IMG/VR virus record: IMGVR_UViG_2928125067_000001
Span: 2,187 to 66,186 of that record
Length of the DNA stretch: 64,000 nt
From: a virus
Direction: 5' to 3' (one strand)
Part shown: piece after piece, positions 5,003-62,599 of the stretch
Layout of the letters: the number at the start of each line of letters is the position of its first letter
How positions within the stretch are numbered: position 1 is the first letter of the stretch
The notes under the pieces: generated by a model
What the model saw: only the letters and a program-made list of their open reading frames with translations
Database searches by the model: none
What the model was told of the DNA's origin: nothing
Made by a program: the position numbers and the translations under genes

Positions 5003-5098
5003 TCAGAGCTTCGTCAGGTTGCCCAGCACGAGCCCCACGCCCAGCGCCAATGAGCACCACATGACGACGAGGCCCATGTCGGGCGGACAGTGGTGCAT
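5003..5098 (-). CDS. Small membrane peptide (31 aa)
   Basis: TGATG coupled; MHHCPPDMGLVVMWCSLALGVGLVLGNLTKL. Confidence 0.45.
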   Translation of the reverse strand: MHHCPPDMGLVVMWCSLALGVGLVLGNLTKL

Positions 5099-5679
5099 CA
5101 GCTGTGCGCCGTCTGGCGGATCCCCTTTATGGAGGACGACCACCAGTCCCCGATCCAGGGCCGCGTCCTCTCAAGCAGCGGAGCGATGTCCGGCCGGGTG
5201 ATGAGGAGTAGAGCCACGATCACAGTCGCTGCACCGACCCCGACGCCGAGTGCTACGCGATTGCGGCGCGGCACCGTTCCGTCAACAGCGCCCGGCGCGC
5301 TGACGTGGAGGATCGCCGCAACGACGCCCAAGAGCACGATAGGCGAGACGATCTCCGAGTTGAGCAGCCACTGCGAGGGCGAAAGCCGGTAGAGGATCGA
5401 GTACAGGCTTTGCATCATGTGGGAGGCAAAGCTGATCCAGATGCCCACGATCAGGAAATCGGTGCGCTTCGGGTTTGGCGCCGTCAGGGCCTTCCATGCA
5501 TCTGCGCCGTAGACATACAGGACCGTCGCATAGAAGCCGGCCGCCAGGGTGCGCGTCGCTAGGATCAGATCAGCATTCGGGACGAAGACGTTGATGCACT
5601 GGTAGGCGACAAAGAGGAGCAGGATCGAGATATAGATCGTTCCACGAATGCGCTCCGGTCGGTCGTCGTTATAGATCAT
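5098..5679 (-). CDS. Multi-pass membrane protein in lysis cassette
   Basis: About five hydrophobic segments in 193 aa. Confidence 0.8.
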   Translation of the reverse strand: MIYNDDRPERIRGTIYISILLLFVAYQCINVFVPNADLILATRTLAAGFYATVLYVYGADAWKALTAPNPKRTDFLIVGIWISFASHMMQSLYSILYRLSPSQWLLNSEIVSPIVLLGVVAAILHVSAPGAVDGTVPRRNRVALGVGVGAATVIVALLLITRPDIAPLLERTRPWIGDWWSSSIKGIRQTAHS

Positions 5680-5684
5680 GCTGC

Positions 5685-6005
5685 TCAGTCCCTACGCTGG
5701 GCGCGATGGTCTGCGCTCTGATCCATGCCCGCCAGCATGTTCTCCACGATGGCCCGAATGTCGTTGGGGCGCCGGCCGGACCATTTCGCTGCCTGTTCTT
5801 CCGTGCGGGCGCGGATTGAAGCGGCCTCACCCTCAAGGCGCTCGGTTAGCTGCGCATTGGCGTGGATCGTCGCGTCGGCAGCCTCGACTTTCCGGCTGCG
5901 TGCCTCGCTCGCCTCGTTGAAGGCAGCATCCACGCGCCCGGCGTGGATCTTCGCGAAACAGCGCGCCGGGAGCACGTAGGCCAAAGCCTGATCCAGCCAC
6001 GTCAT
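5685..6005 (-). CDS. Lysis-cassette protein, coiled coil
   Basis: ATGA overlap with upstream gene; MTWLDQALAYVLP... Confidence 0.65.
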   Translation of the reverse strand: MTWLDQALAYVLPARCFAKIHAGRVDAAFNEASEARSRKVEAADATIHANAQLTERLEGEAASIRARTEEQAAKWSGRRPNDIRAIVENMLAGMDQSADHRAQRRD

Positions 6006-6442
6006 GCATCGCTCCCCGCTCGGCCGCGACGTAGGTAGCCGCGGATCGCCTCGGCGATGTTGAAGGCGAGTTGCCGCGGGTCGCGGAGCATCTGCAGGAT
6101 GCCCTCCAGCGCTTGGCTGGTGTTGGCGAACCCGTGCCGGATCTCGGTGCCGTTGAGCGCGACGAGGTTGGACAGCTCGCCGAGCGTCTGCGTCCGGCTT
6201 TCCAGCGTCTGCTTGAGGCCCTGGAGCAGTTCGCGAACCCGCTCGTCGCCGGCCGAAGCCTCGGCGAGGGCCACAAGCGCCCGCTCGCTGATGTTCTCGA
6301 TCCGCTTGTAGAGGTAGCGGATCACGAGGGCGAGGACGATGATCACCAAGCCTTCTGCGACGATGATCGCGCCTAGGGGGCCCTGCCCCAGAAATGTGTC
6401 TGCTGCCTTTTGAGCGGTCGTTACAGCGGCGGTCGGGTCCAC
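6002..6442 (-). CDS. Membrane-anchored coiled-coil protein (holin/spanin-like)
   Basis: QGPLGAIIV...IIVLALVIRYLY TM then coiled coil; GTG start inferred. Confidence 0.7.
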   Translation of the reverse strand: MDPTAAVTTAQKAADTFLGQGPLGAIIVAEGLVIIVLALVIRYLYKRIENISERALVALAEASAGDERVRELLQGLKQTLESRTQTLGELSNLVALNGTEIRHGFANTSQALEGILQMLRDPRQLAFNIAEAIRGYLRRGRAGSDA

Positions 6443-6456
6443 TACGCGTCGCCTTT

Positions 6457-6486
6457 TTGCGTAGCAGAAATGGCTTGCGGCATTCT
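6457..6486 (+). promoter_or_regulatory. Putative sigma70 promoter TTGCGT-N18-CATTCT
   Basis: Predicted start about 6492 coincides with 5' end of structured element. Confidence 0.45.
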
Positions 6487-6490
6487 GAGG

Positions 6491-6635
6491 TCCTGACACA
6501 GGGTGAGCCTAGCCATCGCTGGCGCGGTTCTGTCGCGTTAGTGGTGGTCAGTGGGGCGAGCCGTAAGCCGCCAAGCACATCGGCTTGCCCCACGCTGCAT
6601 CGCCTTTGGCCGGGCGATGACGGCTCAGGTCAGGA
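6491..6635 (+). ncRNA. Candidate four-way-junction small RNA antisense to lysis operon
   Basis: Three nested hairpins (16, 13, 8 bp) inside a closing stem; all non-Watson-Crick pairs are G.U on the + strand. Confidence 0.6.
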
Positions 6636-7016
6636 AACCGGCACACCCGGCAGCTTCGCGGCCTCCCGGAGCGAGCCGACGACGTTTTCGGCCGGGATCT
6701 CGTCGGCGGTCTTCGCCTTGGTGATGACCGCATCGACCTGCGGGAGGTCGGCTGCTGACTTGATGATGCCGTGCGGGCGGTTCTTGATCAGGCCCCACAC
6801 GCCGGCACCCGCGAGCAGGATGCTGCCGACAACGGTCTGAAACTCGGGAGTGCCAAGGTAGGCTAGCGTCTCTTTGGAGATGAGGTTGCGGCTGTTCAGA
6901 ATGCCCGCGATGAAGCTGATGATCACGCAGACCATCGCGATCAACTGCGGGGAGATCACGGCCTTCGAGGCTGCCGGCGCCGCCTGAGAAGGCGTGGATT
7001 GCTTCTGCTGGTCCAT
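6630..7016 (-). CDS. Putative holin
   Basis: Two TM segments; ends GVWGLIKNR; located in lysis cassette. Confidence 0.65.
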   Translation of the reverse strand: MDQQKQSTPSQAAPAASKAVISPQLIAMVCVIISFIAGILNSRNLISKETLAYLGTPEFQTVVGSILLAGAGVWGLIKNRPHGIIKSAADLPQVDAVITKAKTADEIPAENVVGSLREAAKLPGVPVS

Positions 7017-7025
7017 GTGCGATCT

Positions 7026-7271
7026 TCAGCCAATATGGGGAGCGATTGCGTCCCACAGATCCTGCGGGATGCTGTCGAGTTCGGCCTTGGTGAAGGTCTC
7101 CCGGTGGAAGACGCTGCACCGCTGGAGCTTCGCGACGAGATCCGGCTTCAGGCGCGGCAGGGCGGCGTGAACCTGCGGGAGGTTCAGTCCCATGCTGATG
7201 GCGAGGCCATCCTTGGCCGACGTCGTGTAGGGCAGTGCGAATGGATACCGGCGAGCCATGGCGCGGCTCAC
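7026..7271 (-). CDS. Hypothetical protein
   Basis: Coupled to lipoprotein gene, 81 aa. Confidence 0.6.
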   Translation of the reverse strand: MSRAMARRYPFALPYTTSAKDGLAISMGLNLPQVHAALPRLKPDLVAKLQRCSVFHRETFTKAELDSIPQDLWDAIAPHIG

Positions 7272-7756
7272 TTGGTCTTGGTGCCGGTCACAGCCACGGG
7301 CTGGCCTTTCACGATGATGGTCTTGGTGACGGTCTCACCGACTTTCGGCTCGGCAGCCTTCGCGGGGGCCTTTTTCGCCTTCTCGGGCGCCTCGCCGGCC
7401 GTGTAGGAGGTCGGAGCCGCGTTGCTCAGCGCCGTGCAGGCGATCTGCGCCACCTTCGTCACCGGCACGCTCACGGAGGCGATATCCGGGTTCAGGGCGA
7501 CGATGATGTTCTGAACCGAGGTCACGGTCGGGAGGAAGCCGCAGGCGGTCTTGGTGGCCGTGCGGACCTGATTGATGATGGTCGTGACCTTCTGGATCTG
7601 GGCAGTCGAGAGACCGATGCCGGAGAGGCCGAAGGGTGTGGTCACTCCGCCGTTCAAGGCGTCGTTGATCTGGCTCTGGCTGGCCGTGAGGTTGCAAGCG
7701 GACACGGCGACGCCGACGCAGCCAAGCGCCAGCGCCCGCGGAATGATGCGGAGCAT
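7268..7756 (-). CDS. Lipoprotein (possible o-spanin-like)
   Basis: Signal with lipobox VSAC; KTACGFLPT motif. Confidence 0.75.
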   Translation of the reverse strand: MLRIIPRALALGCVGVAVSACNLTASQSQINDALNGGVTTPFGLSGIGLSTAQIQKVTTIINQVRTATKTACGFLPTVTSVQNIIVALNPDIASVSVPVTKVAQIACTALSNAAPTSYTAGEAPEKAKKAPAKAAEPKVGETVTKTIIVKGQPVAVTGTKTK

Positions 7757-8429: not shown

Positions 8430-8537
8430 TCACCTCGGAAACTGCCCTGCCACACCCAGCAGGATCGCCAACGCCACCGCAGAGCCGAACAGGATGGCGA
8501 AGACCCATTCCACGCCGCGGGGCTTGAGCAGACTCAT
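8430..8537 (-). CDS. 35-aa single-TM peptide coupled to endolysin
   Basis: TGATG overlap; MSLLKPRGVEWVFAILFGSAVALAILLGVAGQFPR. Confidence 0.55.
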   Translation of the reverse strand: MSLLKPRGVEWVFAILFGSAVALAILLGVAGQFPR

Positions 8538-9271
8538 CAGCGCTTCGTCCGCTGCACGACGTGATGCACGGGCGCGGCTCTCTTCCGCACCGGAACAGGC
8601 TTCTTTGGCTCGACGGCGTGCTTGTCCGCGACCGGCTTGGGCTTGGCGGGGGCTACGGAGGCCGCTGGCGGCGTCGAGGCTTCTGCGGCAGGCTCGGCAC
8701 CTACGCCATGCTTAGCGGCGATCAGCGCGGCTCTGAACTGATTGAAGTACCCCGCGATCAGCGCCGCCTTGTCGGTGCCGTTGATGATGGCCCGAGCGGC
8801 TTTCGGATTGCTCTTGCCGTGGCCGAAGTAGTCGGACAGCTTCTTGCCCGTGAACCAGCCCGAGATCATCCCGTGGAACAGGATGGTGGCGGCCACGTCC
8901 ATTCGCATCGCCAGCGCGGGGGTCTTCACGAGGTCTTCGCTCGCCGTCAGCACGCCGAGCTTGCGCAGTTCCGTCGTGGCCTTGGCGTAGTTCGCTTTCC
9001 AAGTGAGCTGCACGAAGCCGCGGCCCCAGAAGCCGGTTGGCCCGTAGGCTCGCCCCTTGCCGCGCCCATACTCCTCGATCGGCTGCATCGTGCGCGCCGT
9101 CTCATGGATCGTCGTCGCGAGGACGTAGGCCAGCGGATCGGTCGGCAGGGCCGCCGGGCAGGCGTCGAAGATCGCGTCCATGCCCTGGACCTGTTCGGCC
9201 GTCAGGCTGCCGCCGAACAGCGGCTTGCGGACGTGATCAAAGAACGCGGCTCGGTTGAGAGAGGCGGTCAT
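8537..9271 (-). CDS. Endolysin, glycoside hydrolase family 19-like
   Basis: LAYVLATTIHET...PIEE...GRGFVQLTWKANY...ARAIINGTD. Confidence 0.9.
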   Translation of the reverse strand: MTASLNRAAFFDHVRKPLFGGSLTAEQVQGMDAIFDACPAALPTDPLAYVLATTIHETARTMQPIEEYGRGKGRAYGPTGFWGRGFVQLTWKANYAKATTELRKLGVLTASEDLVKTPALAMRMDVAATILFHGMISGWFTGKKLSDYFGHGKSNPKAARAIINGTDKAALIAGYFNQFRAALIAAKHGVGAEPAAEASTPPAASVAPAKPKPVADKHAVEPKKPVPVRKRAAPVHHVVQRTKR

Positions 9272-57953: not shown

Positions 57954-58304
57954 ATGGCCGAAGCAAGCAACACAGCACCGGCCGAGACGCATCCCGAGGC
58001 TGAGCAGGCTGACAACCGGCTCTGGTACATGCACATCCAGGGACCGGACGATGTCCACGCGGCGCCCGACTTCTGGACGGCCCTAGCATGGGCGGCCGAG
58101 CTGAACACCGCCATCGCGCAGAAGGCCGCCAAGGAGAACTGGGCGGCTGACGGGAACTACCCGCATACGCAGGCCGTCGTGCGGCGTTGGACGTGGTCGG
58201 CGACGGAGCACGCGACCATGCTCGCCCGCGAGCTTGCCGAGCGCCAGGAGCATGCCGAGAAGCGTGCCGCCGCCCTCAAGCAGCGGGAGGCGTCCCATGG
58301 CTAA
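57954..58304 (+). CDS. Hypothetical phage protein
   Basis: LW.MHI.GPDDV.AAP motif. Confidence 0.75.
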   Translation: MAEASNTAPAETHPEAEQADNRLWYMHIQGPDDVHAAPDFWTALAWAAELNTAIAQKAAKENWAADGNYPHTQAVVRRWTWSATEHATMLARELAERQEHAEKRAAALKQREASHG

Positions 58305-58497
58305 GACGCCTCGCTATCCAACCGCTCGCTGGTTCCGTGGCCTGGGCCGGTGCGTCTCCTGCGGCAAGCCCGCGACCGGCGACCTGATGAGCTTCCGGAA
58401 CGACCGGATCGGCACTTTCTGCACGCGGTGCGGCGAGCGGGAGGCGAATGCCGCCCTCAAGGCCGTCGAAGAGACGAGGAAGCCTCTCCATGTCTAG
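58297..58497 (+). CDS. Small Zn-finger protein
   Basis: CVSC...CTRC. Confidence 0.6.
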   Translation: MAKTPRYPTARWFRGLGRCVSCGKPATGDLMSFRNDRIGTFCTRCGEREANAALKAVEETRKPLHV

Positions 58498-61231: not shown

Positions 61232-61550
61232 CATCCTGACGCCGCGCGAGGTCGCGGACGAGTGGGGGTGCTCGGAGCAGCACGTCCGCAACATGGTCAA
61301 TCGTGGCGACCTCGGGCATTTCCGGCTCGGCGGCAAGCTACTCAGGATCCCCCGTTCAGCCGTGGAGGCAGCAGAATGCGCCGTGCTCAGCGCGACTACG
61401 ACATCGGACGGCTCAAGACCACTCAGTTCCCCCGAGGCGAGTGTATCCTCACCTTCTATCAAGAGGGCAAGCGACGCCGGCTCCGGCTCGGCACAGATAA
61501 TGAGGCTGAGGCAGAACGTCGTGCGCCAGCGCTTTACGCCGAGGCCCTGA
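61215..61550 (+). CDS. xis: Excisionase (HTH_17/MerR-like)
   Basis: LTPREVA..WGCS..HVR.....G.L..FR.GG...RIP. Confidence 0.85.
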   Translation: MGRRPDILTPREVADEWGCSEQHVRNMVNRGDLGHFRLGGKLLRIPRSAVEAAECAVLSATTTSDGSRPLSSPEASVSSPSIKRASDAGSGSAQIMRLRQNVVRQRFTPRP

Positions 61551-62422
61551 GGCCGACAGGTACGAGCGTCCGCGAATTGTGGGACGCCTACTGCCGGGAC
61601 AAGGAGGGAAACCCGTCCGTCGTCATCATGGGGCACCAGTGGAAGGCACTTGGGCCATGGTTCGGTGCCATGAACGCTGAGGACGTCACCATCGCGGACT
61701 GCCGGGCCTACACGGCCGCGCGGCGGCAGCAGGGCATCAAAGATGGCACGATCATCACCGAGTTGGGACGTGTCCGCACGGTGCTGAATTGGGCGGTAAA
61801 GCACAGCCTGCTTGAGAAGGCGCCCTACATCGAGCGCCCACGCGAGGTGAAATCGACCACGGGGCACCTGACGCTGCCTCAGGTTCGCGCGCTCGCCAAT
61901 GCCTGCGCGGCTCCGCACCTGAAGCTGTTCGTTTGGCTGGCCTACGCCACCGCCGGTCGGGCTGGCGCGATCTTGGACCTGACGTGGGACCGCTGCGATT
62001 TTGAGCGGAACAAGATCGATCTGGAGAACCCAGAGATCCAAGTGGCGCATAAGGGCCGCGCGGTCGTGCCGATGAACCGGTCGATCAAGCTACGCCTGCT
62101 GGCGGCGCGTGAAGGTGCGAGGTCAGACTACGTAATCGAATGGGCGAAGCAGAAGGTTGGGTCGGTCAAGAAAGGGCTGGCGAGTGCCGCCAAAGCCGCG
62201 GGCCTGCCGCACGTCCACGCTCACATGCTCCGACACTCTGCCGCCGTGCGACAAGCTGAGGAAGGCGTGTCGATGGAGGAGATCGCCAGCTACCTTGGGC
62301 ACTCAGACCTGAAGGTGACGCGCAGGATCTACGCGCGGTTTAGTCCGGAGGCCTTGAGCAAGGGTGCGAACGCCCTGGAATTTGACGATCTGGAGCCGAC
62401 CGAAGTGCGCCGTTCGGCCTGA
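61376..62422 (+). CDS. int: Tyrosine integrase
   Basis: TAGR (R), K, HMLRHS (HxLR), LGH, Y. Confidence 0.95.
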   Translation: MRRAQRDYDIGRLKTTQFPRGECILTFYQEGKRRRLRLGTDNEAEAERRAPALYAEALRPTGTSVRELWDAYCRDKEGNPSVVIMGHQWKALGPWFGAMNAEDVTIADCRAYTAARRQQGIKDGTIITELGRVRTVLNWAVKHSLLEKAPYIERPREVKSTTGHLTLPQVRALANACAAPHLKLFVWLAYATAGRAGAILDLTWDRCDFERNKIDLENPEIQVAHKGRAVVPMNRSIKLRLLAAREGARSDYVIEWAKQKVGSVKKGLASAAKAAGLPHVHAHMLRHSAAVRQAEEGVSMEEIASYLGHSDLKVTRRIYARFSPEALSKGANALEFDDLEPTEVRRSA

Positions 62423-62524: not shown

Positions 62525-62599
62525 TGGTGGGCGCGACAGGGATCGAACCTGTGACCCCTACCATGTCAAGGTAGTGCTCTCCCGCTGAGCTACGCGCCC
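62525..62599 (-). tRNA. tRNA-Val(GAC), prophage attachment site
   Basis: GGGCGCGTAGCTCAGCGGGAGAGCACTACCTTGACATGGTAGGGGTCACAGGTTCGATCCCTGTCGCGCCCACCA cloverleaf with CCA. Confidence 0.97.

Follow-up and report, generated by a model that had tools for sequence, protein, structure and literature searches.

A window of 64,000 nt (the whole stretch of DNA analyzed here), taken from a 66 kb IMG/VR provirus record with approximately 65% G+C, carries a real, conserved, and strand-specific structured element of a new family within its lysis module. The conserved unit is three tandem hairpins at 6512-6624 on the + strand, and there is high confidence that this fold of approximately 115 nt exists as a + strand structure under selection. 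Sequence comparison suggests that it is probably a real, undescribed regulatory RNA. A sequence-only reading of the window had been unable to assign it to a known family, and nothing at or near the gathering score was identified in Rfam 15, the best matches within 5500-7500 (E up to 10) being the L13-Bacteroidia leader (16.9 bits vs. 38) and sR53 (12.5 vs. 49); the whole window at gathering scores returned tRNA-Val only. GenBank phages gave no DNA match, the holin-like protein next to the element had no match in phages or plasmids, and full-text searching of the literature, read as listings and abstracts, returned no description of such an RNA. Lysis cassettes are viewed as protein-only systems timed by holins and antiholins, and a conserved RNA in this position would extend the control of lysis, or the safety of the prophage, to the RNA level.

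Conserved hairpins on the + strand

Hairpin 1 (H1; 6512-6527/6533-6548) has 16 bp including six G.U pairs and a 5-nt loop, hairpin 2 (H2; 6551-6563/6581-6593) has 13 bp with one G.U pair and a 17-nt apical loop containing a GC-N6-GC mini-stem motif, and hairpin 3 (H3; 6598-6605/6612-6619) has 8 bp with one G.U pair plus a 4-bp outer extension, GCUG/CGGC, with which it spans 6594-6624 and ends 5 nt ahead of the holin stop codon. The stems and G.U counts of the three hairpins had been described in these terms from the sequence, and each hairpin was recovered in the RNA minimum-energy fold. The + strand of 6491-6635 folded at -87.1 kcal/mol compared to -60.8 +/- 4.0 kcal/mol for 200 dinucleotide-preserving shuffles, none of which folded as well (z -6.5), and its reverse complement had a z of -3.8 as RNA against shuffles of the same kind. 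For the core at 6510-6628, the + strand RNA reached -74.3 kcal/mol (z -6.6 vs. -1.9 on the - strand) and the minimum-energy structure made up 36% of the ensemble. The caveat that G/T-rich strands form G.U pairs more easily by chance was answered by these shuffles since they preserve composition, and the local GC skew at the element is just +0.09 to +0.16.

Homologs were collected by several routes. A holin protein search of IMG/VR revealed four related loci, among which L003 and L004 carry the element at 82-84% nucleotide identity with holins 54-60% identical in protein; no element was present in L002 or L005 from the same search, nor in L006 from a search with the next gene, p146. A 20-nt H3 pattern identified 8 viral and 77 metagenome stretches, from which an nhmmer profile retained full-length matches only, and two H1 patterns returned the same viral records plus L147 and L174. 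Two further H1-pattern matches (L168 and L173) were chance, lying in coding sequence and failing the model, and none of the 54 matches of the H3 pattern in 185,579 species genomes extended past the pattern. After removal of duplicates, the set held 16 distinct sequences including the window, from 11 viral records (the window's own included) and 6 further metagenome contigs, with an identical element in the two viral records holding L010 and L013. Several of the 16 are close variants, and approximately nine H2 types were distinguished by eye.

Covariation, one of the checks proposed in the sequence-only reading, was present in both a plain MAFFT and a model-fitted alignment. RNAalifold on the MAFFT alignment returned the three tandem hairpins with compensatory changes in 13 of 42 pairs. 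The model-fitted alignment had compensatory changes in 14 of 40 pairs and 98.1% of cells paired, compared to 36-64% when pairing partners were slid by 1-3 columns, and none of 500 shuffles reached any of five measures; this alignment leans towards the model, so that the MAFFT figure is the more conservative. By hairpin, the model-fitted alignment gave 96.5% of cells paired and 5 of 16 compensatory pairs in H1, 100% and 9 of 13 in H2, and 98.2% with no compensatory change in H3. Variability and covariation both peak in H2, which keeps its pairing at sequence identities to the window down to 42% and its GC-N6-GC apical motif while the stem changes. As the nearly invariant H3 never covaries, its structure is supported by folding energy and conservation. 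Invariance of H3 is partly a collection bias, as sequences retrieved through the H3 pattern are uninformative on it; in the H3-independent search, the exact 20-mer occurred in 8 of 10 true matches, with two changes in L147 and H3 absent from L174, and all H3-found sequences have the H1 invariants. H3 and the ends of H1 stay near-invariant while the flanking holin drops to 30% amino acid identity. A coding origin of the conservation was not supported, since none of the frames read showed a conserved amino acid sequence, H2 differs among homologs through indels and paired substitutions, and the subtypes have entirely different translations.

Additional pairing between an upstream GCUUG and the H2 loop (CAAGC or CAGGC) was considered as a pseudoknot. 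It is possible in the window-like, L008-like, L116, and L174 types, and was rejected because the CCCGGC loop type (L011, L014, and the L070 group) disrupts it and because the upstream side never covaries as judged by eye. The element is itself a mosaic, the window H2 being 100% identical to that of L010, the upstream block 90% identical to that of the L070 group, and H1 nearest to L004 and L147, which suggests recombination inside the element. The divergent copy in L174 (1026-1252) keeps H1, H2, and the upstream block, and has in place of H3 the 3' end of a 30-codon ORF for a lipobox peptide (MGRRAVNRMLIVLGVAAFVFTAAC...).

The strand carrying the fold was indicated by the wobble pairs. It had been noticed in the window that every wobble would be G.U on the + strand and A.C on the mRNA strand, and this asymmetry was both borne out and conserved: across 15 sequences, H1 contained 86 G.U cells vs. 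0 A.C and H2 contained 25 vs. 2, and five pair positions of H1 were G.U or U.G in all 16 sequences. The + strand was steadier than its reverse complement in 16 of 16 homologs by 12-30 kcal/mol (mean 21.5), and H1 alone ranged from -17 to -26 kcal/mol on the + strand vs. -7 to -11 kcal/mol on the - strand. H2 and H3 are mostly Watson-Crick paired, and their complements still fold on the - strand. The absence of A.C cells in H1 together with the greater + strand stability identifies the folded strand as the +, antisense to the lysis genes, so that the strand assigned from the sequence holds. Through G.U pairing, the element illustrates how an operon can encode a folded RNA on one strand while its mRNA stays unfolded.

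Genomic context of the element

Nearly all long ORFs from approximately 5 kb to beyond 22 kb of the window are on the - strand. The lysis neighborhood on this strand comprises an endolysin (8537-9271; phrog_181, E 1e-27), the lipobox protein p162 (7268-7756), p81 (7026-7271), a 128-aa holin-like gene (6630-7016), p146 (6002-6442), a 106-aa ORF between p146 and p193, and the multi-pass membrane protein p193 (5098-5679). The holin-like protein matched Pfam Phage_holin_10 with E 2.3e-5 and 24.8 bits, under the 27-bit cut-off, and its stop codon (6630-6632) adjoins the element. The next - strand gene after the element, p146, matches its family profile and encodes an N-terminal membrane segment and a coiled coil; its PHROG matches are weak (Rz-like spanin, E 0.007 for the L014 homolog; holin, E 0.03 for the window protein), and p146 is possibly spanin-like judging from these. 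Elsewhere in the window, a tyrosine-integrase-like ORF (61262-62422) lies beside tRNA-Val(GAC) (62525-62599), and this is likely the attachment end of the prophage with host DNA past 62.6 kb.

The holin stop (6630) and the likely GTG start of p146 (6442) are separated by 187 nt, which the element occupies. Of the 16 loci, 15 place the element immediately upstream of a - strand gene of the p146 family (profile E 1e-41 to 1e-51), the exception being L116 in which the following gene encodes a multi-pass membrane protein. The preceding gene, whose stop codon the element follows, encodes a Pam3-gp28-like holin in 11 of 16 loci; L011 and L014 have an unrelated membrane protein of 145-146 aa (phrog_12264) in its place, L147 a 66-aa ORF, and L174 a 30-aa lipobox peptide, and the L116 contig ends there. 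In L005 and L160, which have no element, the order is holin, p146-like, p106-like, and p193-like, with the holin and p146 genes abutting or overlapping, and L006 has a p146 homolog of 86% identity without the element. A model search of whole records found one copy in each of 10 positive records, a single copy in the window, and none in 5 negative records, including three rated complete. It follows that the element is an optional, discrete insertion, approximately 170-190 nt long, at a single lysis-module junction, lying between genes that abut in relatives as a moron would. A REP- or MITE-like repeat does not fit the single copy in the window and in each of the 10 records or the failure of any pattern match in species genomes to extend.

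The four-gene order of holin-like gene, p146, a protein of approximately 100 aa, and a multi-pass membrane protein of approximately 200 aa is conserved (window 5098-7016 on the - strand, L005 2492-4233, and L160 1997-3738), and no member has a firm family assignment. Gene content compared among 7 positive and 4 negative records (11 of the 15 records) displayed extreme mosaicism, with structural genes of the window common to one positive and three negative records. No window ORF was present in all 7 positives and absent from all 4 negatives, and only lysis-module genes recur; the lysis module is shuffled among otherwise unrelated phage genomes.

Contigs from RNA libraries, in 3 runs of different studies, matched p81 and p162 at 95-99% and diverged sharply at 7026, which indicates that lysis-module relatives with another downstream neighbor are present in those libraries. 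With a 2.2-kb query, which hides a small RNA, these contigs covered 7026-7745 and nothing on 5600-7005, and a run searched as raw reads gave 0 reads.

Ends of the element and candidate promoter

The sequence-only reading had enclosed the three hairpins in a four-way junction of about 145 nt by two closing stems, with 5' halves at 6491-6497 and 6504-6509 on the + strand complementary to 6629-6635 and 6622-6627, respectively. Neither this junction nor its extent was retained, as the closing stems are not conserved: cells were paired in 44.8% for the outer and 76.7% for the inner stem vs. 96.3% for H1, 94.1% for H2, and 87.5% for H3. Both stems are perfectly complementary in the window; the outer one is part of the minimum-energy fold and the inner one is missing from it because RNAfold extends H3 instead, the inner stem competing with the invariant GCUG/CGGC extension. 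The 3' half of the outer stem is the stop and last codons of the holin-like gene, so that the overlap with the stop codon (6630-6632) noted earlier is correct for that structure, and its 5' half (6491-6497) is complementary to the AGGA ribosome-binding site serving a mini-ORF.

This mini-ORF of 13 codons (MPQAISATQKGDA; 6442-6483, - strand) is preceded by AGGA, its stop overlaps the p146 GTG start (TAGTG), and it is confined to the window-like subtype. Counterpart 13-codon ORFs with other residues were observed by eye in the alignment for L003, L010, L070, and L075 and are absent from the L008 and L004 types. The mini-ORF MPQAISATQKGDA looks like a coupling leader that arose after insertion of the element.

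A promoter had been proposed upstream as TTGCGT-N18-CATTCT. Both hexamers are present (6457-6462 and 6481-6486) and each matches its consensus in 3 of 6 positions; they are altered already in the nearest relatives, in other subtypes the next gene covers the -35 position, and a sigma-70 scan of 5600-7400 found no promoter-like site, such that this promoter was discarded as weak and unconserved. Two other blocks on the + strand are conserved. The first, GGCTTGC (6472-6478), contains CTTGC (6474-6478), invariant in 15 of 15 sequences and a candidate -35 element. The second, ACAGG (6498-6502), is nearly invariant with A6500 invariant, and is a candidate -10 region or RNA 5' leader; it lies 19 nt past CTTGC and 9 nt ahead of H1, with fixed gapless spacing and variable sequence between. 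L174 keeps both CTTGC and ACAGG, and L116 keeps CTTGC only. CTTGC-N19-ACAGG may act as a promoter, with the RNA beginning at the base of H1, in which case TTGCGG would serve as the -35, followed by an 18-nt spacer, CAGGGT as the -10 with the invariant A at -11, and a start at an invariant A/G. The candidate CAGGGT is a poor -10 region whose last base is not conserved, and CTTGC-N18-21-ACAGG occurs once in the window vs. 0.48 expected by chance. In the -35 boxes of alphaproteobacteria, conservation is highest in CTTG, and the host here is known only as Pseudomonadota. A protein encoded in the host flank matched two Methylobacterium genomes at no more than 32% and had no match at E 1e-40 or better in the other 400 of 401 genomes sampled from the same class. 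No intrinsic terminator was found at the element, where no T run follows H3; between 5600 and 7400, terminator-like sites occur only at 7253 and 7356.

Possible roles and related systems

The best explanation, proposed tentatively and at somewhat less than even confidence, is that the element is an RNA "moron": a self-contained gene, lying between the holin-like gene and p146, for a non-coding antisense RNA that acts on the lysis mRNA. This mechanism is less certain than the existence of the selected + strand structure. Transcription would start at approximately 6510-6512 from the conserved CTTGC...ACAGG block and would yield a stable RNA of approximately 115-120 nt, possibly longer if it continues into the antisense of the holin 3' end. 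Such an RNA would match the intercistronic part of the lysis mRNA with perfect complementarity. On that mRNA, the H1 G.U pairs would become A.C mismatches, leaving the mRNA copy of H1 open beside the p146 translation start as a landing site. The intermolecular duplex over H1 was computed at approximately -80 kcal/mol, compared to -17 to -26 kcal/mol for the moderately stable H1 hairpin, which favors invasion and a long perfect duplex. Long perfect duplexes are the usual substrate of RNase III, and cleavage of the duplex or uncoupling of translation would make expression of the lysis genes less leaky or shift its timing.

Prophage-like elements of Bacillus subtilis encode the 3'-overlapping type I antitoxin RNAs RatA (against txpA, in skin) and SR4 (against bsrG, in SPbeta). 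By sequence, the element described here is complementary to its operon over the intercistronic segment, and its neighbor is holin-like in 11 of 16 loci; any overlap with the ORF would depend on where the RNA ends. As a putative small structured prophage RNA, it would resemble these antitoxins in its convergent orientation next to a small membrane (holin-like) gene, at the 3' end of that gene, and in the proposed duplex formation with RNase III-type decay. It differs in having no similarity to them in sequence or structure, in that the putative RNA is far more conserved than its neighbor, and in that the neighbor belongs to a long late operon rather than being a stand-alone toxin gene. The classical phage antisense RNAs, lambda OOP, P22 sar, P1/P7 c4, and P4 CI RNA, act in immunity and early regions. 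The predicted RNA would share with them a short length, a phage origin, a phage mRNA as target, and control of a developmental decision, and is distinguished by its place in the lysis module, its three long tandem hairpins, and the lack of a match to an Rfam model.

A purely cis-acting antisense RNA needs no conservation of sequence, yet H3 and the H1 ends are near-invariant, which points to a trans partner. The same + strand RNA could accordingly bind a host protein or RNA through H3, the H1 ends, and the H2 apical motif, with a nuclease, RNA polymerase, defense sensor, or host mRNAs as candidate partners and the lysis module as a merely tolerated insertion site. This alternative is rather unlikely, although it accounts for primary sequence conserved far past the needs of self-complementarity, for an H2 apical motif that outlasts changes in its stem, and for an element that is optional among close relatives as morons are. 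The lack of a co-occurring ORF favors a local or host-factor role over a distant phage partner, and any trans partner would then come from the host. The trans-acting alternative is opposed by the position of all 16 elements at the same lysis-module junction and in the same orientation despite differing upstream gene families, where varied sites would be expected, by the absence of the Rho-independent terminator typical of trans-acting sRNAs, and because no target was identified.

A more specific and still less probable form of this proposal is a portable RNA moron of a new class, which would be made in the lysogen and would use H3 and the H2 apical motif to bind a host factor (nuclease, RNA polymerase, or immune sensor), with the H1 G.U pairs ensuring that only the antisense strand folds, and would protect the lysogen or the phage rather than only pairing with its own complement. 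Binding of a host factor would make the element a new kind of prophage cargo. The morons of lambdoid phages, a concept from the HK97 and HK022 literature, are independent promoter-gene-terminator units between late genes. The element is similarly a discrete insertion between late genes that abut in relatives and is present or absent among close relatives; its cargo is in contrast a structured RNA rather than a protein gene, is antisense, and lacks a recognizable terminator. As the element is small, intergenic, and easy to delete or mutate, its role is directly testable.

Improbable as a third reading is an element of the - strand lysis mRNA, in which the complements of H2 and H3 would form a processing site, a stabilizer of the holin 3' end, or a translation spacer, with the + strand remaining untranscribed. 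Transcription of the - strand within the operon is certain, the complements of H2 and H3 retain folding on it, and in the window subtype the coupled mini-ORF with its AGGA site lies right beside the element. However, H1 is unable to form on this strand, where its 86 G.U cells become A.C and its energy falls to -7 to -11 from -17 to -26 kcal/mol, the compensatory changes in H1 preserve + strand pairing, and the - strand core folds as RNA no more stably than shuffled sequence (z -1.9).

G4-type complementary-strand origins and single-strand initiation signals are three-hairpin structures that function at the DNA level in ssDNA phages and plasmids. The element shares with them three adjacent hairpins in about 120-140 nt and would, like them, function on one strand only, and differs in folding much more strongly with RNA parameters and in a locus with no sign of an ssDNA stage. 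A single-stranded DNA structure on the + strand, such as a priming or initiation signal in phage replication, is very improbable: the + strand core exceeds shuffles as DNA (z -3.8, vs. -0.9 on the - strand) and its adjacent hairpins and strict strand specificity fit such signals, but its stability with DNA parameters is much lower (-34 vs. -74 kcal/mol as RNA), 6 of 16 H1 pairs would be G.T, and the element is dispensable in close relatives and always placed in the lysis module rather than near replication genes.

Elsewhere in the window, a weak covariance-model match at 58251-58370 on the - strand (17.8 bits) is probably chance, with a z of -1.4 against shuffles and a position across the junction of two + strand genes. 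It has GGCTTGC, CAGG, and CGCTGC...GGCGGC in common with the element.
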